A stretch of DNA of 60,651 nt. Origin: Terriglobia bacterium (GTDB lineage: Bacteria; Acidobacteriota; Terriglobia; Terriglobales; Acidobacteriaceae). Location: contig JAIQFM010000001.1 in NCBI GenBank assembly GCA_020073285.1, positions 1 to 60,651 on the forward strand. Direction: 5' to 3'. The notes beneath the pieces are model-generated. The model made no database searches. It had not been told where the DNA came from and saw nothing but the letters and a program-made list of their open reading frames with translations. The position numbers and the translations under genes were made by a program. Shown here in pieces: positions 7,517 through 60,432 of this stretch (position 1 is its first letter; every line of letters begins with the position of its first letter).

Positions 7517-7547
7517 CCCCTATTTGCGATACAACTGCTCTATCCCC

Positions 7548-38882: not shown

Positions 38883-38983
38883 AGGGTCCCGAGCGGAGTA
38901 CCTGACTCCGAATGTCGTCCCAAGTTACCAACGAACGCGGTGCGCGAAGCGACCGGAGCCGTTGCGGTTATGCTATCCCAAAG

Positions 38984-39023
38984 CCAAAAGAAAAGGGGCC
39001 TGCCCCCGATCGAGGCAGGCCCC
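38984..39023 (-). terminator. Rho-independent terminator of the TonB-dependent receptor gene
   Basis: A perfect 10-bp stem, GGGGCCTGCC (38995-39004) with GGCAGGCCCC (39014-39023). On the minus strand it is followed by TTTTCTTTTGG. It lies 14 nt after the stop codon. Confidence 0.8.
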
Positions 39024-39036
39024 AACAAGCCGAGGC

Positions 39037-42687: not shown

Positions 42688-42995
42688 CGCATCCCCCTGA
42701 AAAGTGAAAAATATTCCGAACAAGTGCTTGGCAAATCACTGGGGTGCTAAGTCGCGGGCCGACAAGCCAAGGGTGGGAAGAAGATACTGGGCAGATTAGC
42801 AACTTGGTCACTAATCCGGAGATCCCCACACCCAAGTGGCATGTAACAGTGCACGTTCCTGCCCAAATCGGGAATCAAGCCAGATCAACCAGTTGAGGCC
42901 GGTGGAAGTGGCCGCTCCTATGGAAAACCATATTTGCAAGCCTTGTCCCTTTCCAAAATGGGAATGGACTAAAAATGGAATCGACACTGATTTTA

Positions 42996-43009
42996 TTACT
43001 TATAAGTAA
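42996..43009. promoter_or_regulatory. Perfect 14-bp AT-rich palindrome TTACTTATAAGTAA
   Basis: Self-complementary. It sits 32 nt downstream of the CRTAC1 gene stop and about 310 nt upstream of the TonB-dependent receptor start, inside an AT-rich island. Confidence 0.4.
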
Positions 43010-43040
43010 ACGTATCGGCAGGCGCGACTCAGGCGGCGCC

Positions 43041-44839
<1,799 letters not shown>

Positions 44840-44843
<4 letters not shown>

Positions 44844-45889
44844 TGCAGGCGGCCCGAGGCCATGCCTCCGGCGCGCTGCTGGGCCTTGGTCAGCTCGGCG
44901 AAGCGTTTCATTTCCTGCTCGGCGGCAGGGCGCTGATTGAGTTGAGTCAGCACGCGCGCCAGTTGGTAATGCGGACTGGGGTCGTTCGGGTTGAGGCTGA
45001 TGGAGCGCTCCAGCGCTTCGCGCGCGGCCTGCGTGTCGCCAAGCAGCGCGAGCGCCTTGCCAAGGTCGTAGTAAGCGTCGGCGCGCGGTTTCAGGGCCAG
45101 GGCGGCACGGTCATTGGAAACCGCGGCCTGCAGGTCGCCTAGTTCGAGTTGCAGGTGGGCGAGCTGGTAATAGACCTCGGCATCGCGGTTGCCGCGGCGC
45201 AACTCGGTTTCATATTCGGCGATGGCCTCGCGATTCCTCCCCAGGCTGCCATGGGCGAAACCAAGATGGTAGTGGCCGAGCGGGATATTGGGATCGAGGC
45301 GGAGCGCGATCTTAAACTGCTCCACCGCTTCCAGCGTACGGTTGCTGTTCTGGCAGGCGCGCCCAAGCAGGATGTGAGCCAGCGGCGTCGAGGGATCGAT
45401 GCGCACGGCCAGCTCCAGTTGTTCCGCTGCAGGTCCGTACTGGTTTTGCTCGAGGAAGGCGAGCGCCAGGTCGTAATGCGAGTCGAAGTCGCGCGGCGCC
45501 AGCGTGGTGGCGCGCCGCAGATGGGGCATAGCCTGCCGCAGGTCGCCGGATTGCATGAAGGCGAGGCCAAGGTAGTGGGCGAACTCGGCGTCCTGGGGCC
45601 AGCGCTCGACGGCTTGCTTGCCCACGCGAATGGCATCGGCGGCGCGCTTGGATTTCAGACAGGAGAGCAGAAGTCCGGAATAGGCGGGCTTGCTCGCGGG
45701 AAAGCGCTGCACGGCGGATTGGAAAATTTCCGCGGCGCCGGCGAATTGCTCGGCCCGGAGTGCTTGCTGGCCCCGCTGGATCAGCGTGGCCTCTGAATCC
45801 TGCGCCAGAGCGGCAGTGGATATCAGGACAATGACGGCGAAGGGAACCCAACTGAGCAGCGTTGGCACGCGCGTACGGCAAGTCCTCAA
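44840..45889 (-). CDS. TPR repeat protein (secreted or anchored)
   Basis: 349 aa. Hydrophobic N-terminus, then about 8 TPRs. Its stop overlaps the downstream GTG start (GTGA). Confidence 0.75.
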
Positions 45890-46095
45890 ACAACACCCCT
45901 ACGAAGTTCTGCCCTCGCCGCCAGGGCCAAAGCCCTTTGCGGTTGCGGCATGGGTCTCGCCGGGTTAAAGCCCGGCGCTTCTACCGCCTTACCGCGTCAT
46001 GATACCAAAGCGTACGCGCCGCCGCGGTTTGCGGTAGGCTGCTGAGTCCAACACGGTTGTTCCGGAGCGATCGCTTGACCACCTCGCTGACGACG

Positions 46096-47511
46096 ATGAG
46101 CGCCGCTGCAATGGCGCGGATGGTAAGAACGAAGAAAGTCTCGCCGGTGGAGTTGGTATCGGCGCACCTGAAACGTATCGACCAGTCGCAGCCGCGGCTG
46201 AATGCCTTCGTCACCGTGGATGGCGATCGCGCCACTCAGCAGGCTGCCAAAGCGGAAGCGGCCCTGATGCGCGGTGCGGAGCTGCCGCCGCTGTTTGGCG
46301 TGCCGATCAGTGTCAAGAGCTCGATTGATGTTGCCGGGCTGAAGTGCGAGGCGGGCTCGCGGCTGCGGGCGGGGCATGTTGCGGAAACGGACGCGCCGTT
46401 GGTGGCGCGGCTCAAGCGCGCGGGCGCCATTGTTCTCGGCAACAGCAATACGCCGGAGCTGCTGATGGCGTACGAGACGGACAACGTCCTCGCTGGCCGC
46501 ACCTGCAATCCGTGGGACCTGCAGCGCACGCCGGGCGGATCGAGCGGCGGCGAGTCTGCGGCGATTGCGGCGGGATGCGCGGCGGCGGGAGTGGGCAGCG
46601 ACGGCGGCGGGTCCATCCGTGTGCCGGCGCATTTCACCGGCATCTGCGGGCTGAAGCCTACCCCGGGACGGATTCCGGGGACGCAGCATTTTCCCGCCTG
46701 CGTGGGGCCATTCGCGTTCCTGGGCGTGGTTGGGCCCCTGGCGCGGACGGTTGCCGATCTGCGCCTGATGTTGAGCGTGATGAGTGGGTACGATCTCGGC
46801 GATCCCATGTCCGCCAATTTTGCGCCGGCCGCCGCGGACCGCAGCAATGTGCGCCATTTGCGGATTGGGTGTTTGACCGACGAGGCAATGGGAACGATTT
46901 CCGAGGAGACTCGCGCCGCCGTGCACTCCGCCGCGGGCGCGCTTCAGCGCGCGGGATTGGCAGTCGAGACGGTCCGCCCGGAAGGATTGGAAGAAGCGGG
47001 CGAGTTATGGCGCGTGTTCTTTTGCCAGGCGGGCGCGATGCTAGTTAGACGCGTGGCCGCGGGTCGCGAAGCCGAGTTGAGCCCGATGCTGGCGCGCTTT
47101 CTCGCGACTTTTCCGGCGGAACCCCCGATGTCGGGCGAGCGGCTGCTGACGGCGTTGATCAATCGCGACCTATTGCGCGCGCGGTTCCTGCAGCAGATGG
47201 AGACGTGGCCGGTGTTGCTGTCGCCGGTCTCGACCGGCCCGGCGTTTCGCCATGGCGAAGGCGGATGGACCGAGGGCGACCCGGCGAATTACCTGGTGAC
47301 GATGCGCTTTACGCAGTGGTTCAACTTGCTGGGCCTGCCGGCGGCGGTGGTCCCGGTGACCAAGTCGCCGGAAGGACTGCCGATCGGAGTGCAGGTGATC
47401 GGCAGGCCGTATGAAGAAGAGGTGGTACTCGAAGTGGCGTCGAGGATCGAAGAGGCGTTCGGATGGCGGGCGCCGCCGACGACCTGGACGCGCGAAGCAC
47501 GCACCGAATGA
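46096..47511 (+). CDS. Amidase signature family protein
   Basis: ORF 46057-47511 trimmed to MSAAAMARMV. GGSSGGESAAIAAG signature and upstream Lys/Ser context (PISVKSSIDVAG). Confidence 0.85.
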   Translation: MSAAAMARMVRTKKVSPVELVSAHLKRIDQSQPRLNAFVTVDGDRATQQAAKAEAALMRGAELPPLFGVPISVKSSIDVAGLKCEAGSRLRAGHVAETDAPLVARLKRAGAIVLGNSNTPELLMAYETDNVLAGRTCNPWDLQRTPGGSSGGESAAIAAGCAAAGVGSDGGGSIRVPAHFTGICGLKPTPGRIPGTQHFPACVGPFAFLGVVGPLARTVADLRLMLSVMSGYDLGDPMSANFAPAAADRSNVRHLRIGCLTDEAMGTISEETRAAVHSAAGALQRAGLAVETVRPEGLEEAGELWRVFFCQAGAMLVRRVAAGREAELSPMLARFLATFPAEPPMSGERLLTALINRDLLRARFLQQMETWPVLLSPVSTGPAFRHGEGGWTEGDPANYLVTMRFTQWFNLLGLPAAVVPVTKSPEGLPIGVQVIGRPYEEEVVLEVASRIEEAFGWRAPPTTWTREARTE

Positions 47512-47616
47512 AGCGTCGGTAACTCGTTCCGCGATAGATCTGCCTTCCGGCGGCGCTGGACAGAGTGTCTGCACGGCGGATAAGCTAGCCGACAACTTGT
47601 GGGGGGTGCGGCGTTT

Positions 47617-50466
47617 ATGTCAGTCAGGCGACCTAATTCTGTTCGCACCGTGCTAGCGGCGCTGGTCGCCTTCCTGTTCCTCTCCGCCGTTTACCTGTAC
47701 ACGTTCCCGTCGCCCACGCTGGTTTACCCAGCCGTCGTTCTGCTGCATGTTCTTGCCGGCGTAATAGCGATGGTGCTGCTGGCGTGGTATGCCGCGCGCC
47801 ATCTCCGCGACTGGAGCGCACTATCCTGGACTGGGTGGGCGCTGCTCGGCGCTGGCGGAATTCTCGGCATTGTTCTGATATTCACCGGAACGCCGCACTC
47901 GGCGTGGAACTCGATGTACCTCCACATCCTGCTTTCGCTGGCCGCGGTTGTGGCCCTGGCAGCGCGTGGATGGGAAAGGCGCCGCTGGCTCGGCGGGGCG
48001 GGTGGAACAATCGCTCGTGTCGCGATATGCTCGGTCGCGGTCGTGGCGATCTCCGCCTTCGGGTACTCGTGGCGCAACGGAGCGTGGCTGCGCAGCCACG
48101 TCATCAAGAACCGTCCCGCGCCTGCGACCATGGATGGAGAAGGCGACGGCCCCAAGGGCGCTTTCTTCCCTAGTTCGGCGCAGACCGCCGACGGCAAGCT
48201 GATTCCCGGCAAATTTTTCCTGGAATCGCAAGCCTGCGAACGCTGCCACCAGACGATTTACAAACAGTGGTACGGCTCGGCGCACCATTTTTCGTCATTC
48301 AACAATCAGTGGTATCGCAAAAGTATCGAGTACATGCAGGAGGTGGTGGGGACGCGGCCGTCCAAGTGGTGCGGCGGATGCCACGATCCGGCGGTGCTGT
48401 TCAGCGGCATGATGGACACGCCGATCAAGCGGAACATTCATCGGCCGGAGGCGCAGGCGGGCCTGGGCTGCGTGATGTGTCACTCCATCGCGAAGGTCAA
48501 GAGCACCATGGGGCAGGGTGACTTCCTGCTGGAATACCCGCGGTTACACGACCTGGCGGCGAGCGAGAATCCGGTGGTCCGCGCGCTGCACGACTTTATG
48601 GTGAAGCTGAACCCGGAGCCGCACCGGCGGGTATTCCTCAAGCCGTTCATGCGCACGCAGACGGCGGAGTTCTGCTCGACCTGCCACAAGGTTCATCTCG
48701 ATGTGCCGGTGAACCACTACCGCTGGATCCGCGGCTTCAACGAATACGACAACTGGCAGGCGAGCGGCGTGTCGGGCCAGGGCGCGCGCTCGTTCTACTA
48801 TCCGCCGAAGCCGGCGCAGTGCGCCGATTGCCACATGCCGCCGGTAAAATCGGACGAGGCGGGCAACGTGAACGGCATCCTTCGCTCGCACGCTTTTGCC
48901 GCCGCCAACACCGCTCTGCCGACTGCCAACCAGGACCCCGCGCAACTGGCCGCAGTGGAGAATTTCCTGGAAAAATCCGTCTCGGTGGACATCTTCGCGC
49001 TGTCTCCGGCGCTGACCCCGGCGCTCGCCGCGGGCGGCGCGAGAAGCGAGATCGCAACCACCTTCGGCGTGGGCGAAGAAACTGAAACCAGCGTTGCGCC
49101 CGCCGGCATCGAAGCCGCTCCGGTCACGGCCCCGCTCAATCGCGCGCAGGGCGTGGTGCGCCGCGGCGACACCGTGCGCGTGGATGTGGTGGTGCGCACG
49201 CGAACGGTCGGACACTTCTTCCCTGGCGGCACCGTCGATGCCTACGACACCTGGCTGGAGTTGAAGGCCATCGACGGCAAAAGCCAGGTCCTGTTCTGGA
49301 GCGGCATGGTGGAAGACAACGGCCGCGGGCCGGTGGAGAAGGGAGCGCACTTCTATCGCGCGCTGATGATTGACGGCGATGGCAACCCGATCGACAAGCG
49401 CAACGCGTGGTCGACGCGAGCGCTGGTCTATGTTCACCTGATTCCGCCAGGGGCGGCTGATACGGTGCACTTCCGCCTGCATGTGCCGGAAAACGCCGGA
49501 GGCGAAATCAAGCTGCATGCCCGGCTGTGCTACCGCAAGTTCTCCTGGTGGAACACGCAGTTTTCCTTTGCCGGGATTCCCGATCCACGGCAGCAAGGGG
49601 CGGAATTCACACCCAATTACGACGAGCGCCGCATGGTGTTCACCGGCAGCACGGCCGATGTGTCGGGAAAAATCAAGGCCATTCCCAACCTGCCGATCGT
49701 GGCGCTGGCGGAAGACGAGGTGGCGCTGCGGGTAGCGCGGCGGGGCGCGCCCCAACCTAGTCCGCGAACCGAGTTGCGCGCCGATGACTGGACGCGCTGG
49801 AACGATTACGGCATCGGCCTGTTCCTGCAAGGCGATCTGAAGGGAGCGAGCGCGGCGTTTCAAAAGATCGCCGAGATCGATCCCAGCAAGGCGGATGCGT
49901 GGGTGAACCTCGGGCGCGTGGCAGTGCAGGAGGGCGACATGGGACGCGCGCGCCAGGTGCTGGAACGGGCGCTGGCTCTGAAGCCGCAGTTGGCGGCGGC
50001 GCATTATTTTTACGCGCGGGTGCTGCGCAACGTCGGCGAGTACGACGAAGCGGAAAAGCATCTGCGGCAGGTGCTGGCGCAATACCCCCGCGATCGCGTG
50101 GCGCGCAACGACCTGGGCCGCGTTCAGTTTCTGCAGCGCAAGTATGGGGAAGCGGTGGGGCAGTTCCAGGCGGTGCTGGCGATCGATCCGGAGGATCTGC
50201 AGGCACACTACAACTTGATGCTGTGCTACCAGGGACTGGGAAACGAGGCGGAAGCGCGGCGCGAACAGCAGCTCTACCTGCGCTTCAAAGCGGACGAGTC
50301 ATCGCAGGCCATCACCGGCGCTTACCGGCAGTCTCATCCGGAGGACAACAACGAGCGCCAGCCGATCCATGATCACGTGTCCGTGCCGCTTTCGGTGCTG
50401 TCCGCCTACAACGCCGAGCGTGCGCGAGTAGCGCGGAATGCGGCGCATGGAGGCGGCGGCAAGTGA
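47617..50466 (+). CDS. Membrane-anchored multiheme-motif cytochrome c / TPR fusion protein
   Basis: ORF trimmed to MSVRRPNSV. About 5 N-terminal hydrophobic helices. Five CxxCH motifs (CERCH, CGGCH, CVMCH, CSTCH, CADCH). C-terminal TPRs (residues ~720-900). Confidence 0.75.
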   Translation: MSVRRPNSVRTVLAALVAFLFLSAVYLYTFPSPTLVYPAVVLLHVLAGVIAMVLLAWYAARHLRDWSALSWTGWALLGAGGILGIVLIFTGTPHSAWNSMYLHILLSLAAVVALAARGWERRRWLGGAGGTIARVAICSVAVVAISAFGYSWRNGAWLRSHVIKNRPAPATMDGEGDGPKGAFFPSSAQTADGKLIPGKFFLESQACERCHQTIYKQWYGSAHHFSSFNNQWYRKSIEYMQEVVGTRPSKWCGGCHDPAVLFSGMMDTPIKRNIHRPEAQAGLGCVMCHSIAKVKSTMGQGDFLLEYPRLHDLAASENPVVRALHDFMVKLNPEPHRRVFLKPFMRTQTAEFCSTCHKVHLDVPVNHYRWIRGFNEYDNWQASGVSGQGARSFYYPPKPAQCADCHMPPVKSDEAGNVNGILRSHAFAAANTALPTANQDPAQLAAVENFLEKSVSVDIFALSPALTPALAAGGARSEIATTFGVGEETETSVAPAGIEAAPVTAPLNRAQGVVRRGDTVRVDVVVRTRTVGHFFPGGTVDAYDTWLELKAIDGKSQVLFWSGMVEDNGRGPVEKGAHFYRALMIDGDGNPIDKRNAWSTRALVYVHLIPPGAADTVHFRLHVPENAGGEIKLHARLCYRKFSWWNTQFSFAGIPDPRQQGAEFTPNYDERRMVFTGSTADVSGKIKAIPNLPIVALAEDEVALRVARRGAPQPSPRTELRADDWTRWNDYGIGLFLQGDLKGASAAFQKIAEIDPSKADAWVNLGRVAVQEGDMGRARQVLERALALKPQLAAAHYFYARVLRNVGEYDEAEKHLRQVLAQYPRDRVARNDLGRVQFLQRKYGEAVGQFQAVLAIDPEDLQAHYNLMLCYQGLGNEAEARREQQLYLRFKADESSQAITGAYRQSHPEDNNERQPIHDHVSVPLSVLSAYNAERARVARNAAHGGGGK

Positions 50467-52157
50467 GGAGACTCCGTTCTGCGCGCGTGCTGGCGGCGGT
50501 GGCGTTAGCCGCGTCGATGGCCGTCGCGCAAAGCAAGCCGGGACAAATTCAGTTCCGTGACATCGCGCAAAACGCGGGCATCCGCTTCGTGCACAACAAC
50601 GGCGCCTTCGGAAAGAAATATCTGCCGGAGACGCTTGGCCCGGGCTGCGCCTTCTTGGATTACGACAACGACGGTTATCCCGACATCCTGCTGGTCAATG
50701 GCGCCGCCTGGCCGGGACACGGGCGCGCCGCGACCACGCTGAAGCTGTATCACAATAACCGCAACGGCACGTTCAGCGACGTGACCGCCAAGGCCGGGCT
50801 GGCGGTCAGCATGTACGGCATGGGCGCGGCGGTGGGCGACTACGACAACGACGGCTACGACGACATCTTCATCACCGCGGTGGGCCAGAGTCGGCTGTTT
50901 CACAACAACGGCAACGGGACCTTCACCGATGTGACGCGCGCCGCCGGCTTGTGGGGCATCCAGGAATTCAGCACCAGCGCGGCTTGGGTGGATTACGACA
51001 AAGACGGACTGCTGGACCTGGTGGTCGCCAACTACGTGCAATGGTCGCCCGAAAAGGACCTGTTCTGCACGATGGACGGGACGCACAAGTCGTACTGCAC
51101 GCCGGAGTCGTACAAGGGAGCGTCGCTGCGGCTGTGGCACAACCTGGGTCACGGAAAATTCGAGGACGCGACCGCCAAGGCGGGCTTACACGACCCCAAT
51201 TCCAAGGGGCTCGGCATCGCCGTGCTCGACTACGACCAGGACGGCTGGCCCGACCTGCTGCTGGCCAACGATACCCAGCCCAACAAACTCTACCGGAACA
51301 ACCGCAACGGGACTTTTAGCGAGCACGGCGCCACCGCGGGGATTGCCTTCAGCGAAGATGGTGTGGCGCGCTCCGGGATGGGCGTGGATGCGGCCGATTA
51401 CGACCGCTCCGGGCGGCCCAGCATCGTCATCACCAATTTTTCCAACCAGATGATGGCGCTGTATCACAACGAGGGCAACGGCTTGTTCGTGGACGAAGCG
51501 CCGCGCTCGGAGATCGGGCGCGCCAGCCTGCTGACGCTGGGATTCGGCTGCTTCTTTTTCGACTTCGATCTCGACGGATGGCTGGACATGTTCGTTGCCA
51601 ACGGGCACTTGGATAACGACATCGAGCGCATCCAGAAACGCATCAAGTACCGCCAGCCGCCGCACCTGTTCCGCAATCTCGGCAACGGCAAGTTTGCCGA
51701 AGTGGCGGCTTCGGCGGGAGCGGCGTTTGACAAGCCGCGGGTTGCGCGCGGCGCCGCCTACGCCGATATTGACAATGACGGCGACCTCGATCTGCTGATC
51801 ACCACCAACGGCGGGTCCGCCGTGCTCTTCCGCAACGACGGCGGCAGCAATCACAGCCTGCGCGTGAAGCTGGTGGGCACGAAATCCAATCGCGACGGCA
51901 TTGGCGCGGTGGTGCGCGTGCATTCCGGCAAGGACCGGCAGTGGCAGATGCTGCGCAGCGGTTCCAGCTATTTGTCGCAAAGTGAACTGGTGCTGACCTT
52001 CGGCCTGGGCGCCAATCCGCAAACTTCCGAGGTCGAGGTACAGTGGCCCAGCGGGCAGGTGGACCGCCTGCAAAACGTCGCCGCCGACCGGATAATTACC
52101 GTCCAGGAAGGCCGCGGCGTAATATCTTCTCGCAAGTACTCCAAGCGATCGGAATAG
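50463..52157 (+). CDS. CRTAC1-family FG-GAP/VCBS repeat protein with ASPIC/UnbV domain
   Basis: GTGA overlap with the upstream stop. Signal peptide. Seven DxDxDG repeats. NRDGIGAVVRVHSG...RSGSSYLSQSELVLTFGLG. Confidence 0.85.
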   Translation: MRRLRSARVLAAVALAASMAVAQSKPGQIQFRDIAQNAGIRFVHNNGAFGKKYLPETLGPGCAFLDYDNDGYPDILLVNGAAWPGHGRAATTLKLYHNNRNGTFSDVTAKAGLAVSMYGMGAAVGDYDNDGYDDIFITAVGQSRLFHNNGNGTFTDVTRAAGLWGIQEFSTSAAWVDYDKDGLLDLVVANYVQWSPEKDLFCTMDGTHKSYCTPESYKGASLRLWHNLGHGKFEDATAKAGLHDPNSKGLGIAVLDYDQDGWPDLLLANDTQPNKLYRNNRNGTFSEHGATAGIAFSEDGVARSGMGVDAADYDRSGRPSIVITNFSNQMMALYHNEGNGLFVDEAPRSEIGRASLLTLGFGCFFFDFDLDGWLDMFVANGHLDNDIERIQKRIKYRQPPHLFRNLGNGKFAEVAASAGAAFDKPRVARGAAYADIDNDGDLDLLITTNGGSAVLFRNDGGSNHSLRVKLVGTKSNRDGIGAVVRVHSGKDRQWQMLRSGSSYLSQSELVLTFGLGANPQTSEVEVQWPSGQVDRLQNVAADRIITVQEGRGVISSRKYSKRSE

Positions 52158-52161
52158 CACC

Positions 52162-55100
52162 TTGCTGGAATGGGCGCGCGGTTCAAAGTGGCTGCTGGCG
52201 TGCGCGCTGGCCGCCGGCCTCGTCGTGGGCAGCGGAACGGCGCAGACGCGAAAACCCGCTTCGCCGCCGCGGGCGAATGCGGCGGCGGAAGCGTTGCGGC
52301 TCAACAATGTCGGGGTGGCGTACATCGGCCAGCAGCGGTTGCAGGATGCGCTGCGGGCCTTCCGGCGCGCGCAACAGCTTGATCCGAAGCTGCAATCGGC
52401 GCGCCTGAATCAAGGCATCGCGCTGCTGAATTTGCAGCGTTTCTCGGAGGCACGGCGGTTGCTGCGGGGGATCGCCGAGCGCGATCCGAACGACCCGAAG
52501 GTCTGGTACAACCTCGGCCTGTTGGAGCGCGCGGACGGGCAGGACAAGGCGGCGCTGGAGGATTTCCAACGCGCCGCCAAGTTGGCGCCCGCGGACGCCG
52601 ACACGTTTTATTTCCTCGGCGCGATCTATTCGCAGTTGCATCGCGAGCGGGAAGCGATTGCGGCGCTGAAGCAGGCGCTGGCGCTGGATCCGTTTCACGC
52701 CTCGGCGGAGTTCGCGCTGGCGCGCGCTTATCAGCGTCTGAACGATACCGATGCGGCCAAACCGCACCTGGCGCGCTTCCAGGACCTCACGCGCAACAAG
52801 TTGGGAGCGCTGGTCGGACAAGCGTACGGTGAGCAAGGGCCGCTGTCGCTGGCGCAGCCGGCGAAGGGAGGGGCGCAATCCGCACCACCACCGGTTCCCG
52901 TGCGATTTGTTTACGCGACCATCGAAGCGGGGCTCGCTACAACGGCAAAACCGGCCACAGCGATCTCGCCGAACCCTTTCGACTCCGGCGCTTGCTTCCT
53001 CGACTTCGACGGAGACGGCCTCCCCGATCTTCTGCTCGCCGACAACGGCCCGCAGGGCGGGCTGACACTGCTTCGCAATCTCGGTCGAGGGCGTTTCAGC
53101 GACGTCACTCGCCCGGCGGGACTCGATCCGAGTGCTCACGCGATTGGCTGCGCCGCTGCGGATTACGACAACGACGGCTGGACCGACGTCGCGCTCAGTT
53201 TTCCCAATCACGTCGCCCTGTTTCACAACCAGCATGACGGCACGTTCAAGGACGTAACCGAGCCCAGCGGCATTCGCGCCACACTTGCGCCTTTCGGGCT
53301 GACTTGGATTGACTACGACCACGATGGAGATGTGGATCTGTACATCGCCAGCAATCCGGTCGCAGGCAGCGCAGCGAAAGTTTCCAGCGAGCTCTGGCGC
53401 AACAATGGCAACGGCACCTTCACCGAGTGGACGGAACAGACGGGCCTCGGCACAGGCCCGAGCTTTTCCACCGTCGCCACGGACTTCAATAACGATCGGG
53501 CGGTCGACCTGGTTGTAGCGCCCGAGAGCGGGCAGCCGCGCATCCTGCTCAACCCGCGCGAGGGGAAGTTCAAAGCGGTCGAGCCGTGGTTGCACCCGGT
53601 GCAGCCGGTGGTCGGCATCGCGGCACTGGACTTCAACAAAGACGGCTGGATGGACCTGGCGTTCACGCACAGTTCAGCGCCCGGTGTGAGCCTGTGGCGC
53701 AACGTCGAAGGCAAGCGCTTTGAGCGGGTGCCTCTGCCGGACCTGCATTGGGCGCGCGCCTGGGGCGTTGCCGCCTTCGATTACGACAACGACGGCTGGA
53801 TGGACCTCGTCGCAGTCGGAGAGAACGAACAAGGCCGCGCCGAAATCCGCCTGCTTCGCAACACGGGAGCGAACGGCTTTGTGGATGTCACCGCGCAAAC
53901 TGGACTGGATAAGATTCAGCTCGCCCACCCACGTGCGATTGCAATCGCGGACTACAACGGCGATGGCGATGATGACATCCTGGTAACGCAAGCCAAGGGA
54001 TATTCTCCGGCGCTGTTTCGCAATGACGGCGGCAACAAGAATTCATCGCTGCGCCTGGCTCTCAAAGGTTTGGCGGACAACAAGACAGGCGTAGGCACGA
54101 AGGTCGAGGCATTCGCCGGCGCGCTGTGGCAGAAGTGGGAGCGGACCGGCTCGAGCTATCTCGGACAAAGCGTCACACCCGTTACCATCGGCATCGGACA
54201 CGCCAAGCGACTCGACATGCTGCGCCTGCAGTGGCCGACGGGCGTGGTTCAGGACGAAGTCCACGTTGCTGCGGGCATTGCGAGAATCGACGAGATCGAT
54301 CGCCGCGGCAGCTCGTGTCCTCTCTTGTTTGCGTGGGACGGCAGGCGCTACCGCTTTGTCGCCGACCTGATCGGCGCGGGCGTGGTTGGCCACTGGATCG
54401 GGCCGGGGCAGCGCAACGTGCCGGACCCGACCGAGTACATCAAGGTCGAGAACGTCGCCGCGCGCGGGCAGCGGCTGAGCTTCCGCCTGATGGAGCCGAT
54501 GGAGGAAGTGGTGTACCTCGACCAGGTGCGCCTGCTCGCCGTGGATCATCCCGCGGACCTGGAGGTGTATCCCAACGAGTACTTCGCGTCGAATCCGCCG
54601 TTTCCGGAGTTCAAAGTGATCGCCAGCCGCAACGCGCGGCCACCGGCGGGCGCATGGGATGATCGCGGGCGCGACGTGCTGCCGCTGCTGCGCGAGCGCG
54701 ATCACCGTTACGTCACCGCTTTCGAACTGCTCCCCTACAAAGGCTTTACCAAGTCGCATTCACTGGAACTGGACTTGGGCGCCCCGTATGTATCAGGTCC
54801 GTTGCGCCTGCTGCTGCACGGATACATCGAATATTTCACGGCGACCTCGATGTACGCCGCCGACCAGGCCGGCATCACGCCACTAGCGCCCTACGTGGAA
54901 GCGCTCGACGCCCATGGCCGCTGGGTCCGCGTGATTGAGGACATGGGTTTCCCCGCCGGTCTTTCGCGCACCACGGTGGCCGACCTCACTGGCAAATTGC
55001 CCGTTGGCACGCGCCGCATTCGCATCGGCACCAACCTGCAGATTTACTGGGACCAGATTCTGGTGGACCGCACCGCTCCCGGCGTTCCCGTCCGCACCGA

Positions 55101-55632
55101 GGAAGTGCCGCTGGCGCAGGCGAAGCTTGCGTTCCACGGCTATCCGCGTCCGATCGAACGGAAGACGCCCGGCGACCTCTCCTATATTTACGAAGACGTG
55201 AGCCTCACCGGACCCTACGCGCGGCAGGCGGGCGCGTACACGAGCCTGGGCGAGGTGCGCGAACTTCTAGCGGCGGCGGACGATTGGCACGTCATCTTCG
55301 GTTCCGGCGATGAGGTGCAACTGGAGTTTGATCCAGCGCAGCTTCCCGCGCTACCGCCCGGCTGGAAGCGCGACTACTTTTTCTTTGCCGACGGCTTCGA
55401 GAAGGACATGGATTTCTACGCCGCCGACGGGCAGACGGTCGAACCGCTGCCCTTCCACGCCATGCCGGAGTATCCGTACGCGCCGGGAAACTCGCCCGGC
55501 GACGCGTCGTACATCGATTACCTTCTGGAATACAACACGCGGTTTTACTCGGGCGCGGCGGAATCGGAATACCGGTTCCGCTACCGGACCTTGCCCCACG
55601 ATCCGCTCAAGCCCGGCGCGCCGGCCCACTGA
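52162..55632 (+). CDS. Large TPR / FG-GAP / ASPIC-UnbV protein with an uncharacterised C-terminal extension of about 430 aa
   Basis: 1156 aa. Signal peptide, N-terminal TPRs, FG-GAP loops (DFDGDGLPDLLLADNG, DYDNDGWTDVAL, DYDHDGDVDLYIA...), a UnbV block (NKTGVGTKVEAFAG...GSSYLGQS), then CPLLFAWDGRRYRFVADL... to the end. TTG start, uncertain. Confidence 0.8.
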   Translation: MLEWARGSKWLLACALAAGLVVGSGTAQTRKPASPPRANAAAEALRLNNVGVAYIGQQRLQDALRAFRRAQQLDPKLQSARLNQGIALLNLQRFSEARRLLRGIAERDPNDPKVWYNLGLLERADGQDKAALEDFQRAAKLAPADADTFYFLGAIYSQLHREREAIAALKQALALDPFHASAEFALARAYQRLNDTDAAKPHLARFQDLTRNKLGALVGQAYGEQGPLSLAQPAKGGAQSAPPPVPVRFVYATIEAGLATTAKPATAISPNPFDSGACFLDFDGDGLPDLLLADNGPQGGLTLLRNLGRGRFSDVTRPAGLDPSAHAIGCAAADYDNDGWTDVALSFPNHVALFHNQHDGTFKDVTEPSGIRATLAPFGLTWIDYDHDGDVDLYIASNPVAGSAAKVSSELWRNNGNGTFTEWTEQTGLGTGPSFSTVATDFNNDRAVDLVVAPESGQPRILLNPREGKFKAVEPWLHPVQPVVGIAALDFNKDGWMDLAFTHSSAPGVSLWRNVEGKRFERVPLPDLHWARAWGVAAFDYDNDGWMDLVAVGENEQGRAEIRLLRNTGANGFVDVTAQTGLDKIQLAHPRAIAIADYNGDGDDDILVTQAKGYSPALFRNDGGNKNSSLRLALKGLADNKTGVGTKVEAFAGALWQKWERTGSSYLGQSVTPVTIGIGHAKRLDMLRLQWPTGVVQDEVHVAAGIARIDEIDRRGSSCPLLFAWDGRRYRFVADLIGAGVVGHWIGPGQRNVPDPTEYIKVENVAARGQRLSFRLMEPMEEVVYLDQVRLLAVDHPADLEVYPNEYFASNPPFPEFKVIASRNARPPAGAWDDRGRDVLPLLRERDHRYVTAFELLPYKGFTKSHSLELDLGAPYVSGPLRLLLHGYIEYFTATSMYAADQAGITPLAPYVEALDAHGRWVRVIEDMGFPAGLSRTTVADLTGKLPVGTRRIRIGTNLQIYWDQILVDRTAPGVPVRTEEVPLAQAKLAFHGYPRPIERKTPGDLSYIYEDVSLTGPYARQAGAYTSLGEVRELLAAADDWHVIFGSGDEVQLEFDPAQLPALPPGWKRDYFFFADGFEKDMDFYAADGQTVEPLPFHAMPEYPYAPGNSPGDASYIDYLLEYNTRFYSGAAESEYRFRYRTLPHDPLKPGAPAH

Positions 55633-55638
55633 TTCCAT

Positions 55639-56076
55639 ATGTCCAACGGTCCCACACACCACACCGCGCGGTTGAAGACGCGCGTGCTGATGGTCGCCGT
55701 CATCGTCGGCAACGTTGCCGGCAATACTCTGCTCAGCCGCGGCCTGCACCATGGCGGATCGCGTCTCTCATCCTCGTTCCTGCACTACCTGCACGGAGTC
55801 GCCGACCCGTGGGCGATGGGCGGGGTATTGATCCTGATGGCGTGGATGATTGCGAACTTGTCGCTGCTCAGCCGCGCCGACCTCAGCTACGCGCTGCCGG
55901 TGACCGGGTCGGTGTCGTTCATGCTAATTGCGCTTGCGGGACATTTTTTTCTTAGCGAGCCGGTCTCGCTGGCGCACTGGATCGGCATCGCCATTATTAC
56001 CGTGGGCGTGGTGCTGGTGATCGAAACTCCGCCGCTCACCGTCGCCGTCCACGGCCCGCCGGAGGACGAACGATGA
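55639..56076 (+). CDS. Half-size EamA/DMT-superfamily membrane protein (subunit 1 of a split pair)
   Basis: 145 aa, about 4 TM helices, with a single EamA-like domain. Confidence 0.65.
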   Translation: MSNGPTHHTARLKTRVLMVAVIVGNVAGNTLLSRGLHHGGSRLSSSFLHYLHGVADPWAMGGVLILMAWMIANLSLLSRADLSYALPVTGSVSFMLIALAGHFFLSEPVSLAHWIGIAIITVGVVLVIETPPLTVAVHGPPEDER

Positions 56077-56435
56077 CGTGGCTGCTGGTGGCCATCATTG
56101 TTGTCTCCAACACCGCGGGTGACGTGTTCAACACCGCCGGCATGAAGCGGCATGGCCAGGTCGAGCACTTCAACCCCCGCGCCATCACCCACCTGGTCCT
56201 TCACCTGGCGCGCAATGGCTTTATCATTGCGGGCATCGCCTCACTGACGGTTTCCTTCGGCGCGCTGATCATGCTGCTTTCCATCGCGCCGGTCAGCTTC
56301 GCCATTCCCGCCACCGCAGCCAGCTTTCTGCTGGAAACCGTGCTCGCGAAAATCGCCCTCAAGGAGCGGGTCACGTGCAAGCGGTGGATTGGCGCGACAC
56401 TGGTGGCGATTGGGGTAGCGTTGCTGGCGCTCTAG
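56073..56435 (+). CDS. Half-size EamA/DMT-superfamily membrane protein (subunit 2 of a split pair)
   Basis: 120 aa, about 4 TM helices. ATGA overlap with the preceding gene. Confidence 0.65.
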   Translation: MTWLLVAIIVVSNTAGDVFNTAGMKRHGQVEHFNPRAITHLVLHLARNGFIIAGIASLTVSFGALIMLLSIAPVSFAIPATAASFLLETVLAKIALKERVTCKRWIGATLVAIGVALLAL

Positions 56436-58582
56436 TTCGGCACTCCGATTTTCTCGCCGCGCTTCAGCACCCGGTCGAAAAAGTCCGCCGCCGCCTCGTA
56501 AGCACGCACCCAACTTCGCCAGAGCAGGAAGTCGTGGATCTCGTCGGGGAAGACGATGGTTTCGAGCGGCGTCTTCTGCGCGCGCAGGCGCTGCACCAAG
56601 TCAACGGTTTGGTCGAACGGGACGTTGCGGTCGTCGTCGCCCTGGATGAGCAGCACCGGCGAGCGCCACTGTGCGATGGTGGAAATCGGCGAGGACTCGA
56701 ATGCCAGCTTCTTTGCTTGCGCCAGATCGGGCGCATCCTCGCCCAGCGTGGGCGCCCAGTGCCGCGCTTCCGACCACCACTCGTGCACGCCGTGCAGGTC
56801 CACTCCGGCGGCGAACAGGTCGGAGTTGCGTGCCAGGCCCATCGCGGTCAGATACCCGCCGTAGGAGCCGCCCCACAAGCCGATTTTCTTCGCGTCCACG
56901 TAGGCCAGCGAGCGCAGATATTTCGCCCCGGCGACGACATCCTGATATTCGGTTCCGCCGCGCCAGCCGGTGTTGGGCGCCATCCGAAACGCGCGCCCGT
57001 ACATGATCCCGGTGCGGTAGTTCACCGAGAGCACCACGTAGCCCAGCGACGCCAGGTACTGATTTTCGGCGTAGGCGTTGTGGTAGTAACCCATGTTGTG
57101 GAAGCCGAGCATCATCTGGCGCATGGAGCCGCCGTGCGTAAAGATGAGCGCGGGGCCAGGCGTTGTGCGACCCGGCGGGACGAAAAGCTGGCCATGAATC
57201 TCCAGCCCGTCTTCCGATTTGAAGAGCACTTGCTTCGGCGTGACCAGTTCGGCGCCGGGGAAATCCGCGGGCAGCGCCTCTTTTGCGATCATCTGCCGGG
57301 CCTGCGCGGTCAGGAAATACGGCATGGCCGGCGAGGTTGCGGTCGAGCCGAGGCAGACCACGAACTTGCCGTCGCCCGTCTCCAACGGCGCCCATTCAAT
57401 CGTTTCGCCGCGCGAAAGTGGCTGCGGCGTTCCGCCCGCGACCGGCACGCGCCAGACGTGACGGCGGTCGATGTCGTCCTGGTTGGAAGTGTAGATCGCC
57501 GATTTCTTGTCCGCGCTGAGCGCCACATCTTCAAATTCGAACTGACCCGGCGTGAGCGGCGTTGCCTTGCCTCCGCTGGCGGAAATCGAATACAGGTGCG
57601 CCCAGCCGTCCTGCTCGCTGGCGAAGATCACGCGGTCGCCGGCGGCGAACTGGAACGCCTCCTCCTCGACGAGGTTGGGGAACGAACCGTTGGCATCGTC
57701 GTTGCTGTGCCAGATTTCGCGGGCGTTCAACGCGGCGGCGTCGGCCACCCAGATGGCCCAGGGCTGCGGGCGCACGGGGATAATCGGTAGGCCGCGTTCG
57801 GCGCCGTGCACGCGGACGAATGCGATCTTGGCGCCGTCGGGCGACCAGCGCGGCAGCGAGTCGCGATCGGCGCTGGGCGCGACGTAGCGCAGGGTGTCGC
57901 TGCCGAATTCATGGACCGCGACATAGCTGTGATCGCCGCGATTGCTCCGGAAGGCGATGCGCTTGCCGTCGGGCGACCAGCGCGGGCTGGAGTTTTCTCC
58001 GCGCACGTAGGTGAGCTGGCGAGCTTTCTCCGCCCCCGAGACCGGCGCGATCCACAACTGTCCTTTCGCGCCCGCCCACACGGCGCGCTGGCCGTCGGGC
58101 GAAAGCTGCACGTCTTCGCAACCTTCCTCGTCGCATTCCATCGTGCCCAGCAGGCGCGGCTCGCCCTTGTCCACGTCCACCGCCCAGACTTCCTGGTGCG
58201 GCTGCTGGACGTTGCTGGTGGGATCGGCGACCTCGCCCTTCTTGTTGGTCTCACTGCCGCGGACGTAGACGATGGTGCGACCGTCAGGCGTCAGGCGGAC
58301 GCTCGCCAGCGGCAGGCCGTCGTCGGCGCTGTAGTGGGTCACCTGGCGCGCGGTAAAACTGGGAGAATCCGCGGCCCAGATATTGCGCACGCCTTTCGCA
58401 TTAAACACCCACGCCATGCGAGGGCTGTGTTCGGCGGCGGTCAATTCGCTGGGGAAGGGCGAACTCATCACCTGTTCGAGCGTGAAGCGGGCGTGCAGCG
58501 CCGGGGTGAGCAGAAGTGAAGCAAAAGCGAAGACGACGGCGGTCGCCAAAGCACGGTGGAGATATCGCGGTGCACCTGTCAT
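56432..58582 (-). CDS. S9 family serine peptidase (prolyl oligopeptidase/acylaminoacyl-peptidase type) with N-terminal TolB-like beta-propeller
   Basis: 716 aa. Signal peptide. Repeated SPDG/WSPDG propeller motifs. Nucleophile elbow GGSYGGYLT. C-terminal D...H (QGDDDRNVP, DEIHDF). Confidence 0.88.
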   Translation of the reverse strand: MTGAPRYLHRALATAVVFAFASLLLTPALHARFTLEQVMSSPFPSELTAAEHSPRMAWVFNAKGVRNIWAADSPSFTARQVTHYSADDGLPLASVRLTPDGRTIVYVRGSETNKKGEVADPTSNVQQPHQEVWAVDVDKGEPRLLGTMECDEEGCEDVQLSPDGQRAVWAGAKGQLWIAPVSGAEKARQLTYVRGENSSPRWSPDGKRIAFRSNRGDHSYVAVHEFGSDTLRYVAPSADRDSLPRWSPDGAKIAFVRVHGAERGLPIIPVRPQPWAIWVADAAALNAREIWHSNDDANGSFPNLVEEEAFQFAAGDRVIFASEQDGWAHLYSISASGGKATPLTPGQFEFEDVALSADKKSAIYTSNQDDIDRRHVWRVPVAGGTPQPLSRGETIEWAPLETGDGKFVVCLGSTATSPAMPYFLTAQARQMIAKEALPADFPGAELVTPKQVLFKSEDGLEIHGQLFVPPGRTTPGPALIFTHGGSMRQMMLGFHNMGYYHNAYAENQYLASLGYVVLSVNYRTGIMYGRAFRMAPNTGWRGGTEYQDVVAGAKYLRSLAYVDAKKIGLWGGSYGGYLTAMGLARNSDLFAAGVDLHGVHEWWSEARHWAPTLGEDAPDLAQAKKLAFESSPISTIAQWRSPVLLIQGDDDRNVPFDQTVDLVQRLRAQKTPLETIVFPDEIHDFLLWRSWVRAYEAAADFFDRVLKRGEKIGVPN

Positions 58583-58857
58583 AAGCAGAGGAGACTACGC
58601 CAGCGGGTTGACCGGCGGCAACTTGCTGTGCGGAAAATAGAGCAGTTTTCGATCTTCAGCGTCCCTTACCGCGGTTGACGCAGGCCTTTAGAGTCTGGGT
58701 GAGAACGCAATTTCGTAGACAGCAGTGGTCAAAGTGGACCGAAAATCTAGCCGCAGAGCGGCGGAATTCGTTAGCCCAGCGCGGCAGCGCTGGGGAAAGT
58801 GGAGCAAAATTGTCGAGCGCCAGCGGCGCGGCACAGCTCTCACGCACACACTTTAGA

Positions 58858-60432
58858 CTAGCTGCGAACTTTCCAGACCGTATCCAGCACCGTGCCGTCC
58901 ACCCACTTGACCACGGCGACGGGCTTCTCGGTCAGGCGTGGTTTCTGCGGTTTGCCGCCGCAAATTTTCTCCACCTCGCGCTGGATGTCATGGATAGGAC
59001 GGATGGGTAGGGACGATCCCTTCGCGGCATCGAGCAGGTCCTTGCGCCGAGGATTGATGGCAATCCCTCGCTCCGTGGCCACCACGTCGATCAGCTCACC
59101 CGGCCCGGTGAGCGTCGTCACCTGATCCACAATCACCGGGATACGGTCGCGGAAGGACGGGACGGCCAGCACCGTGCATCCCGCGAACAGGCAGTTCTGC
59201 CAGCCGCCGATGCCGTGCAGCAGGCGGCCGTCGGAGTGCGTTACCACATTCGCGTTGAAGTTCACGTCCACTTCCGTCGCGCCCAGCACCACCACGTCTA
59301 CCAGCGAATTGAAAAATCCCTTGCCGTGGTAGTTGTAGGAGGTGAAGGGCGAGGTTGGAATGTGCCGTGGATCGCTGGCAATGGATTGCACCGCATCCAA
59401 GTCGAACGTCTGCCCGTCGAGGATGTAGTCGGTGAGTCCTTCCTTGAGCAGGTCGACCAGGTAGCGGGTCGAGCCGCCGCGCACGAAACGCGCGCGCACG
59501 CCGCCCTGTCGCATGAATCGCCGCAGGTAATCCACAAAAGCGAGCGCGATGCCGCCCGCTCCTGCCTGGAACGAAAATCCGGGGCGCATGATGCCGGCGT
59601 CGCGCACGAACTGCGCCACGTACTGCGCGATCAGCAGGCGGTCGGGCGAGCGCGTGATCTGCGTCGTGCCCGAGACGATCTTCGCCGGGTCGCCGATCGA
59701 ATCCACCTGTACGACGTAATCAACGTTGTTGCCCTGGATTTGCCAGGGCACGCAGGGGAACTCGACCAGGTTATCGGTGACCACGATCACACGGTCGGCG
59801 TACATGGAATCCGCCAGCGCGAACCCCAGCGAGCCGCAGGCCGAAGGGCCGTGCGATCCGTTGGCGTTGCCGAACGCGTCGGCGGTGGGCGCGGCGATCA
59901 CCGCGATGTCAATGTGCACTTCGCCGTCCTGGATCGCCTGCCAGCGTCCGCCGTGCGAGCGCAGCACGCCCAGGCCGCGCATCCGCCCCTGCGTGCAGTA
60001 GTCGCCGAGCGGGCCGTTCATCGAGCCCTCGATGTGGTGCACGTTGCCCGCTTCCATCAGCTCGATCACCGGCGCGTGCGCGGGAAACGACGCGCTCGGG
60101 AACCACATCAAGTCGCGCGTCCCCATCTTCGCCGCCGTCTGCAGCGCCCACAGCGCCACGCGGTCGCCGTCGCGCAGGTGATGGTGCGTCGAGATGGTCA
60201 TCCCGTCGCTCAGCCCGCATTGGCGCAGCGCGGTTTCAAGATCCGCCACGCGCTTGTCGCCGCTCATCGGATAATCGGCGGCGGTGCGGATCGGCGGCGC
60301 CGCCTTGCGTCCCTGCGGATGATCGTGGTTCACGCCCGCGTAGGCCCGCTGCGGCTTGCCGTTGACGTTCGTCGGCACGACGCGTCCCGCGGCGTTGGTC
60401 GCTAATTCAATCGAATTTGCAATTGTGCTCAT
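58858..60432 (-). CDS. citF: Citrate lyase alpha subunit / citrate CoA-transferase homologue
   Basis: 524 aa, colinear with E. coli CitF as I recall it: GLSDGMTISTHHHLRDGD, HGGRWQAIQDGEVHIDIAVIAAPTADAFGNANG, CGSLGFALAD, QAGAGGIALA. No citD or citE in the window. Confidence 0.8.
   Translation of the reverse strand: MSTIANSIELATNAAGRVVPTNVNGKPQRAYAGVNHDHPQGRKAAPPIRTAADYPMSGDKRVADLETALRQCGLSDGMTISTHHHLRDGDRVALWALQTAAKMGTRDLMWFPSASFPAHAPVIELMEAGNVHHIEGSMNGPLGDYCTQGRMRGLGVLRSHGGRWQAIQDGEVHIDIAVIAAPTADAFGNANGSHGPSACGSLGFALADSMYADRVIVVTDNLVEFPCVPWQIQGNNVDYVVQVDSIGDPAKIVSGTTQITRSPDRLLIAQYVAQFVRDAGIMRPGFSFQAGAGGIALAFVDYLRRFMRQGGVRARFVRGGSTRYLVDLLKEGLTDYILDGQTFDLDAVQSIASDPRHIPTSPFTSYNYHGKGFFNSLVDVVVLGATEVDVNFNANVVTHSDGRLLHGIGGWQNCLFAGCTVLAVPSFRDRIPVIVDQVTTLTGPGELIDVVATERGIAINPRRKDLLDAAKGSSLPIRPIHDIQREVEKICGGKPQKPRLTEKPVAVVKWVDGTVLDTVWKVRS

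Follow-up and report, generated by a model that had tools for sequence, protein, structure and literature searches.

What could a membrane-anchored multiheme cytochrome do together with two exported propellers of the CRTAC1 type, whose genes follow its own almost without a gap? This question is raised by positions 47617-56435 of contig JAIQFM010000001.1 (assembly GCA_020073285.1), from a Terriglobia bacterium of the Acidobacteriaceae. The window, i.e. the whole stretch of DNA that was analysed, is 60,651 nt long. To our knowledge, bacterial CRTAC1/ASPIC-UnbV proteins have no established function. A first-pass annotation had read the locus as a five-gene operon that includes a split DMT transporter. 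We found that the conserved unit consists of three genes, g1-g2-g3, and not of five. This unit probably carries out a redox job outside the cytoplasm, and we tentatively favour the view that it is an inner-membrane-anchored electron-transfer module in which propellers docked on tetratricopeptide repeats (TPRs) act on an extracytoplasmic substrate. The five open reading frames are as follows.

47617-50466, + strand: g1, putative membrane-anchored pentaheme cytochrome c/immunoglobulin-like (Ig-like)/TPR fusion, 949 residues from the ATG (alternative GTG at 47599)
50463-52157, + strand: g2, predicted Sec-exported, calcium-binding FG-GAP propeller of the CRTAC1 family with UnbV/ASPIC domain, 564 residues
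52162-55632, + strand: g3, predicted exported protein with TPRs (52297-52791), a CRTAC1-type propeller/UnbV part (about 52969-54276) and an all-beta tail (54289-55632)
55639-56076, + strand: g4, half-size DMT/SMR-like membrane protein (EamA 23.6 bits, below the cut-off of 28.2)
56073-56435, + strand: g5, half-size DMT/SMR-like membrane protein (EamA 29.7 bits, above the cut-off of 28.2)

The reading frames and their junctions agreed with the annotation: a GTGA overlap joins g1 and g2, gaps of 4 and 6 nt separate g2 from g3 and g3 from g4, and an ATGA overlap joins g4 and g5. The domain content announced for the five products was likewise recovered with Pfam, g4 and g5 being only weakly EamA-like.

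Conservation of the cytochrome-propeller unit

Related loci (n = 170, made up of 80 from species genomes, 80 from metagenome contigs and 10 looked up individually) were scored by tblastn. For g2, we used the loci in which at least 2.2 kb of sequence was available downstream, and asked whether an orthologue began no further than 1 kb after g1 and on its strand; the orthologues showed at least 54% identity. We distinguished clade A (Terriglobales, 60-83% identity to g1) from clade B (52-60% identity). The closest relative, L001, is 83% identical, and L002 is a relative with 67% identity.

A g2 orthologue was present directly downstream of g1 in 124 of the 136 loci with enough DNA, and the TPR-CRTAC1-tail gene g3 accompanied g1 in 74 of 105. 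Homologues of g4 and g5 were found in none of the 170 loci, including that of the 83%-identical relative. The idea of a conserved g1-g5 operon was therefore rejected, and the predicted co-occurrence of a split DMT transporter with the cytochrome-TPR and CRTAC1 genes fell with it.

The decisive evidence for adjacency came from clade B. This is because clade A is broadly syntenic, with genes for a rhodanese, a pseudouridine synthase, the amidase, an APC permease and a glyoxalase conserved too, whereas in clade B g1 and a CRTAC1 gene are adjacent although the flanking genes are unrelated (L085, L087, L088 and L090). In L087 and L088 a g3 homologue of 1171-1174 residues, with the same TPR-CRTAC1-tail arrangement, follows. 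The tight coupling of g1, g2 and g3 is also conserved in relatives. According to database gene calls, the g1/g2 junction is a 1-nt overlap in L001 and L002 and a gap of at most 35 nt elsewhere. At the g2/g3 junction, L087 has a 4-nt overlap, and L088 and L001 have gaps of 2-4 nt.

Co-location had been anticipated across Acidobacteriota and Planctomycetota. For the cytochrome-TPR and CRTAC1 genes it holds in the former, clade B included, but no evidence came from Planctomycetota: the named relatives are Acidobacteriota, except for those of candidate division KSB1 and for one locus labelled Verrucomicrobiia and one labelled Binatia, both of which have the Terriglobales gene order. A separate observation concerns L085 (12654-18093), where PSCyt1/PSCyt2/PSD1, DUF1501 and DUF2231-PSCyt1 genes come after the g1-CRTAC1 pair; they code for further exported proteins with cytochrome c domains.

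The g4/g5 pair is a local addition in this lineage and not part of the conserved module. In L001, a convergent S9 peptidase gene comes directly after g3; in the window, the DMT pair separates the two. g4 and g5 are paralogues of each other (29% identity, E 1e-9), and g4 forms a singleton cluster at 90% identity. Like the paired small transporters ArnE/ArnF and EbrAB, they are adjacent, overlapping, paralogous half-size membrane proteins; unlike them, they give only weak ArnE/F- and EbrB-like matches, far below the family-specific NCBIfam cut-offs, and the pair is missing from every related locus. At the position of the DMT pair, most clade-A loci, about 50, have a gene for an APC-type amino-acid permease after the g3 homologue (18463-19833 in L002, 16432-17904 in L086). 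This could reflect replacement by a non-homologous transporter or mere synteny.

Architecture of the cytochrome and of the propellers

Database gene calls start g1 at ATG 47617. The protein is made of five modules, namely the four domains listed here and a conserved C-terminal tail. Pfam reported Cytochrome_C554 and TPR families, and weak matches to MtrC-II/IV.

47617-48096, + strand: membrane domain, five predicted transmembrane helices with the N-terminus inside (AlphaFold2, positive-inside rule)
48214-48936, + strand: putative pentaheme c domain, CxxCH at 48235-48249, 48370-48384, 48469-48483, 48673-48687 and 48820-48834
48979-49737, + strand: predicted beta-sandwich (Ig-like) domain, with an invariant GHFFPGG loop and a second invariant His (GAHFY)
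49780-50334, + strand: C-terminal TPR domain, about 5-6 repeats, followed by the conserved tail (Pfam TPR, AlphaFold2 helices at residues 722-906)

CxxCH is the motif for covalent attachment of heme c. As the annotation had it, g1 contains exactly five such motifs, at residues 213, 258, 291, 359 and 408 counted from the GTG, and no variant motifs. Inspection of homologues, 40 close ones and 19 distant ones with identities as low as about 25-30%, showed all five to be invariant; in some distant members of the family the first one reads Cx4CH. With several conserved CxxCH motifs in an exported domain, g1 would thus be classified, from its sequence, as a multiheme cytochrome c. Its periplasmic core matched a cytochrome c552 of known structure (PDB 5ZE8) with an E of 3.4e-4 in phmmer and of 4.9e-8 with a nine-sequence profile. 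The significant segment spans heme motifs 1-3, and a weak second segment reaches motif 5. The alignments indicate remote homology between the pentaheme domain and the low-potential cytochrome c552 (LPC) of Thermochromatium tepidum.

In the predicted Ig-like domain, AlphaFold2 placed strands at residues 455-707, with moderate and patchy confidence. The most conserved feature of this sandwich is the motif GHxFPxG, which is present in most full-length representatives of the family and the His of which is invariant. HMMER paired the GHFFPGG of g1 with PHAMPTG from the C-terminal part of 5ZE8, but only in a segment that stayed below threshold. Apart from those of the heme motifs, the periplasmic alignment has exactly five invariant His, of which the beta domain contributes two. 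Five bis-His hemes would require just as many distal ligands, and bis-His ligation of all five would point to electron transfer rather than to an open, catalytic heme. No conserved Cys or selenocysteine was found outside the heme motifs in the sequence or in the alignment of close homologues.

The presence of about five hydrophobic helices at the N-terminus was confirmed by AlphaFold2, which gave confident helices at residues 7-29, 36-65, 68-90, 94-120 and 128-160 (pLDDT mostly above 80). Read from the sequence, the N-terminus and loops 2-3 and 4-5 are where basic residues cluster, so that the N-terminus is expected to be inside and the remainder periplasmic. Attachment of c-type heme requires a periplasmic location. 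The annotation had also mentioned His within helices 2 and 4, and there is one in each: His44 (47746-47748, helix 2) and His103 (47923-47925, helix 4). These are the only two conserved His of the membrane domain. They are invariant in every alignment made, down to about 25-30% identity, and lie at equal depth, each 8-9 residues below the periplasmic end of its helix. The geometry of this pair would suit a single heme b, ligated by both His, close to the outer face of the membrane.

After the TPRs, the tail of g1 (RFKADE..QAITG.YR...PEDNNERQ.IH.H) was invariant in two homologue alignments. More than 7,900 homologues of g1 are present in the database, under no other names than 'tetratricopeptide repeat protein', 'PilF', 'TadD' and 'CcmH/NrfG'. 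An exhaustive search with residues 1-725 returned 3,127 clusters at 50% identity, 773 of them with an E below 1e-30. Most full-length representatives have 4-5 helices, 4-5 CxxCH motifs and the GHxFPxG motif, and the family is found in at least 594 species-level genomes, mainly of Terriglobales and related Acidobacteriota. A pilus-assembly role of the PilF/TadD type was rejected, as it rests on automatic JGI names set off by generic TPRs.

In g2, Pfam detected seven FG-GAP_3 repeats (E 3e-57) and UnbV_ASPIC (E 1e-20). The protein matched the solved CRTAC1 structure 9ETN (vertebrate cartilage acidic protein 1) with an E of 1.5e-23, and it is 48% identical to the window paralogue encoded at 43041-44843. 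The signal peptide (ending AVA-QS) and the ASPIC/UnbV C-terminus that had been described for g2 were both found. Of the seven DxDxDG loops claimed, six are canonical and the seventh is degenerate (DAADYDRSG). The residues conserved among g2 orthologues are general CRTAC1-family motifs, with no obvious redox-metal site. g3 also has a Sec-type signal peptide, and Pfam confirmed its TPR, FG-GAP_3 (E 2e-54) and UnbV_ASPIC (E 4e-9) content. By these profile matches, g2 and g3 are true members of the CRTAC1/ASPIC-UnbV family.

Some 430 residues of g3 had been considered unassignable and, indeed, the last 450 or so match no Pfam family. More than 1,800 homologues of this tail exist, and those listed that are long enough have UnbV/FG-GAP N-terminal to it. 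The AlphaFold2 model of the tail is all-beta (pLDDT 72, pTM 0.73), and the best Foldseek matches were CBM35, CBM32, CBM61 and APC10, with E values of 3e-4 to 3e-2 and target-normalised TM-scores of 0.35-0.6. The tail would accordingly be described as a conserved all-beta region, the model of which weakly resembles galactose-binding/CBM-type sandwiches. It is plausible, on this model, that it binds a ligand, possibly a glycan. In L002 (14687-18161), gene calling split the g3 homologue in two, with products of 847 and 281 residues, which jointly align with g3, tail included; this suggests a frameshift, a pseudogene or an assembly error.

A possible electron-transfer role and its alternatives

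In the electron-transfer reading that we tentatively prefer, g1 would be anchored in the inner membrane by its five helices, where His44 and His103 would ligate one heme b or otherwise form a site communicating with the quinone pool. The LPC-type (5ZE8-like) pentaheme domain would be packed against the Ig-like sandwich, and the five further invariant His, two of them provided by the sandwich, would act as distal ligands of five bis-His hemes, forming an electron wire. The TPR platform and the conserved tail of g1 would hold the two Sec-exported calcium propellers, g2 and g3, and the ligand of the all-beta g3 tail would be polymeric or glycan-bearing. Electrons might then pass between the quinone pool, the membrane heme b, the five c hemes and a propeller-associated reaction on an extracytoplasmic, possibly polymeric, substrate.

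The main argument for considering the TPRs as propeller-docking elements is that TPR and CRTAC1 modules are paired in three different ways in the window: as separate genes upstream of the unit (overlapping by 4 nt, in a unit without any cytochrome), as the fusion seen in g3, and as the cytochrome-TPR protein with g2. A bolder formulation, in which the heme-b/pentaheme-c cytochrome wires the quinone pool to the CRTAC1 propellers as the substrate-handling or catalytic subunits of a new oxidoreductase system, appears doubtful to us.

Several observations weigh against the electron-transfer reading. Residues 1-214 of g1 gave no Pfam match at E ≤10, Ni_hydr_CYTB included, and a profile of the membrane domain gave no meaningful match among PDB sequences, the best being CopD with an E of 0.04; as judged from these searches, the membrane domain resembles no known family of cytochrome b or quinol-binding proteins. 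AlphaFold2 modelled the heme region poorly (pLDDT about 30). Because of this, and because the model was not croppable, a Foldseek search with the whole of g1 returned only TPR matches (MamA and consensus-TPR structures) and was uninformative on the cytochrome and Ig-like parts. The TPRs of g1 are 23-31% identical to all the other TPR proteins of the window and not closer to those associated with CRTAC1; this similarity is generic and provides no support for a CRTAC1-binding TPR subtype in g1, an idea that we dropped. No CxxCH or other redox-cofactor motif was visible in g2 or g3, which have 4 Cys each.

The last observation concerns the KSB1 relatives of g1 (32-42% identity), which have five transmembrane helices, heme motifs and TPRs. 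Their positions are given here.

L083, 8001-10979: KSB1 member of the g1 family
L084, 8001-10832: KSB1 member of the g1 family
L089, 8001-10832: KSB1 member of the g1 family

These genes have no CRTAC1 neighbour, indicating that the cytochrome does not strictly depend on a propeller partner. They lie within exopolysaccharide operons with glycosyltransferases, heparinase II/III-like proteins, APH-like kinases, Wzx and Wzy, and the g1-like gene is translationally coupled to that of a glycosyltransferase.

We therefore considered the possibility that g1 is a periplasmic TPR scaffold or sensor for the processing of exopolysaccharide or envelope glycans. The hemes would then be a redox sensor or a structural core and not the path of a metabolic electron flux, and the propellers and the CBM-like tail of g3 would be glycan-binding or glycan-modifying partners. 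TPR scaffolds with which g1 may be compared in this respect are AlgK, PelB, BcsC and PgaA. Besides the KSB1 operons, this explanation is favoured by the likeness of the g3-tail model to CBM32/35/61-type sandwiches, by the fusion of TPRs to several exported enzymes in this genome, including a sulfatase and a transglutaminase, and by the fact that the paralogous TPR-CRTAC1 pair shares an operon with a TonB-dependent receptor. Yet, the five heme motifs, the five candidate distal His and the two membrane His are invariant across a very large family, which would be a heavy cost for a sensor. Furthermore, the Foldseek matches of the g3 tail are weak (E 3e-4 or worse, target-normalised TM-score at most 0.6), and no glycosyltransferase or polysaccharide-export gene was seen near the module in the Acidobacteriota loci inspected. 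On balance, we consider this explanation unlikely.

Another possibility was that g1 is itself the catalyst, the Ig-like loop with the GHxFPxG motif forming an active site at the distal side of one heme, and the propellers being accessory proteins that deliver the substrate or position the enzyme. A precedent exists in MccSep, whose two-domain design, a pentaheme cap and an Ig-like domain supplying a catalytic residue (PMC13510729), is like the one predicted for g1. The rank of the loop as the best conserved feature of the sandwich and the equivalent PHxxPxG in 5ZE8 point in the same direction. However, g1 lacks a conserved Cys or selenocysteine beyond its heme motifs, and its five extra invariant His fit five bis-His hemes, leaving no open coordination site. 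In addition, our PDB sequence searches returned no MccSep entry, the presence of MccSep in that copy of the PDB being unconfirmed. A catalytic g1 is thus quite unlikely.

The neighbouring genes might also share no function, g1 being a general inner-membrane, quinol-oxidising cytochrome that feeds other cytochromes of these bacteria, in the periplasm or the outer membrane, with the CRTAC1 genes merely linked to it. Terriglobales and peat Acidobacteriota are rich in multiheme cytochromes and in porin-cytochrome clusters that need an inner-membrane source of electrons (bioRxiv 10.64898/2026.05.27.727921), and CRTAC1 paralogues are numerous, with three in the 60-kb window. What makes this explanation improbable is that the gene found directly downstream, with start-stop coupling and despite unrelated flanks, is the orthologue of g2 and not just any CRTAC1 gene; moreover, no porin or other cytochrome gene adjoins the module in the inspected loci. 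Finally, g1 is very improbably a CcmI/CycH/NrfG-type apocytochrome chaperone or heme-handling protein: although Pfam TPR_CcmH_CycH is above cut-off on g1 (53.9 versus 42 bits), some homologues carry the JGI name 'cytochrome c-type biogenesis protein CcmH/NrfG' and the two conserved membrane His are reminiscent of heme-handling proteins, the Pfam match covers generic TPRs only (g3 is above cut-off too, the other TPR proteins of the window below), g1 is, by its motifs, itself a five-heme cytochrome, its membrane-domain sequence shows no WWD motif on reading, and no ccm, ccs or nrf genes lie near g1 in the inspected loci.

Returning to electron transfer, the near-obligatory and translationally coupled association with a membrane-anchored multiheme cytochrome offers a concrete starting point for finding the function of the bacterial CRTAC1/UnbV propellers. 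If the propellers are indeed wired to g1, this would be the first biochemical function for the large bacterial CRTAC1/ASPIC-UnbV family, and soil and peat Acidobacteria would have an unrecognised route to oxidise or reduce an extracellular polymer, such as a glycan or humic-type material. If the membrane His bind heme b, g1 would represent a new type of cytochrome linked to the quinone pool, with a bearing on respiration with extracellular or polymeric acceptors. Terriglobales and related Acidobacteriota, the main carriers of g1, dominate many soils and peats. The module lends itself to experiment, as heme content, quinol reactivity, complex formation and mutant phenotype are all measurable.

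Surrounding genes and comparison with known systems

The other features of the window that deserve mention are the following.

47557-47584, + strand: weak candidate promoter TGGACA-N16-GATAAG, upstream of g1
46057-47511, + strand: amidase-signature amidase, predicted cytoplasmic, upstream of g1 (Pfam Amidase, E 2e-107)
37893-45889, - strand: upstream unit with TPR gene (44840-45889), CRTAC1 gene (43041-44843), TonB-dependent receptor with CarboxypepD_reg (39037-42723) and TPR gene (37893-38882)
58749-58794, - strand: Acido-Lenti-1 small RNA motif, Rfam RF01687 (52.6 bits, gathering score 37)

The promoter proposed by the first-pass annotation is present as written, but it failed a scan with the sigma-70 consensus, which found no more sites than in shuffled sequence. 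Among 164 related upstream regions searched, only that of the nearest relative, L001, has it, with an identical -35 hexamer and spacer and with CATAAT as the -10 hexamer. A terminator scan gave nothing above shuffled expectation. In L001, the spacer upstream of g1 has otherwise diverged, but the 17-nt block CTGGACAGAGTGTCTGC (47556-47572) is unchanged. The block includes the inverted repeat CAGA-N3-TCTG and might act as a -35 region or as an operator; more distant loci do not have it.

Of 118 loci, 73 have the amidase gene upstream of g1, and practically all of these belong to clade A. In clade B, the g3 homologue is followed by the gene for a CN_hydrolase, which is not homologous to the amidase (16143-17189 in L087; 17007-18020 in L088, after two small genes; also in L093, L094 and L103). 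In L093 and L094 it keeps this place even though g3 no longer adjoins g1-g2. For both the amidase and the CN-hydrolases, NCBIfam gave only generic, sub-threshold matches. Neither type of protein has a signal peptide, and a direct periplasmic role was rejected on this ground. Periplasmic processing followed by import and cytoplasmic amide hydrolysis could account for these parallels, the transporter genes after g3 included, and so, equally, could plain synteny.

The upstream unit diverges from the amidase-g1 side and is conserved in L001. Elsewhere in the window, TPRs are fused to exported enzymes: a DUF3857/transglutaminase-TPR protein of 1099 residues (7524-10823, + strand) and a sulfatase-TPR protein of 695 residues (35805-37892, + strand). 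TPRs may therefore serve as a general periplasmic docking module in this genome. The Acido-Lenti-1 motif lies in the spacer between a citrate-lyase alpha-subunit-like gene (58858-60432, - strand) and the S9 peptidase gene (56432-58582, - strand).

Among proteins of solved structure, 5ZE8, the LPC of T. tepidum, is the only one to which the periplasmic core of g1 showed detectable homology in sequence. According to what Chen et al. reportedly described in 2019, LPC has a pentaheme domain and, after it, an Ig-like beta domain, which is the domain order predicted for g1. LPC is a soluble periplasmic protein of 435 residues, whereas g1 has in addition a 160-residue, five-helix membrane domain and a TPR/tail region of 230 residues; the two have low identity, and the significant alignment is confined to a part of the heme domain. 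We know of no CRTAC1 partner and of no physiological function for LPC.

In functional terms, g1 may be analogous to CymA/NapC/NirT, CbcL and ImcH (Geobacter), in which a membrane anchor and periplasmic multiheme c domains link the quinone pool to partner proteins. In CbcL, a b-type membrane domain is fused to a multiheme c domain. g1 gave no match to Cytochrom_NNT or Ni_hydr_CYTB in Pfam, at E ≤0.01 with the whole protein or ≤10 with the membrane domain alone. Where NapC, NirT and CymA have a single helix and a tetraheme domain, g1 has five helices and five predicted hemes. Its five helices with two conserved His, its Ig-like domain and its TPRs have no counterpart in CymA, CbcL or ImcH, and it differs from the cytochrome b subunits FdnI, HydC and CbcL in that it does not match the family profile and has only two conserved His.

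MccSep of Geobacter sulfurreducens is a pentaheme selenoprotein that reduces polysulfide, in which a loop of the Ig-like domain reaches a heme and builds the active site (PMC13510729). Its N-terminal five-heme cap and C-terminal Ig-like sandwich correspond to the design predicted for g1. Unlike g1, it is a soluble tetramer; g1 has neither selenocysteine nor Cys at the loop, nor a candidate for a His/Cys-ligated heme.

The propellers are related to the CRTAC1 structure 9ETN, with which g2, the propeller of g3 and the upstream paralogue have in common the FG-GAP_3 repeats, the DxDxDG calcium loops and UnbV_ASPIC; compared with vertebrate CRTAC1, g3 has an additional N-terminal TPR part and an all-beta tail of 450 residues. 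A CRTAC1-family gene also lies between genes for homologues of hydrazine synthase alpha and beta-gamma in non-anammox bacteria (PMC12758564), i.e. between c-heme genes, which makes a recurring heme-propeller partnership more credible. The heme proteins of those clusters, HZS-alpha-like propellers and MauG/CCP-like dihemes, have no relationship to g1 and lack both TPRs and a membrane anchor. The porin-cytochrome clusters described in a preprint on extracellular electron transfer in peat are different ones, found in the same taxa (bioRxiv 10.64898/2026.05.27.727921). The literature on CRTAC1/UnbV with cytochromes, on multiheme-TPR proteins and on multiheme cytochromes of Acidobacteriota yielded no description of the module. 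Compared with all these systems, g1-g2-g3 brings together known building blocks in an undescribed combination that is very widespread and tightly conserved.

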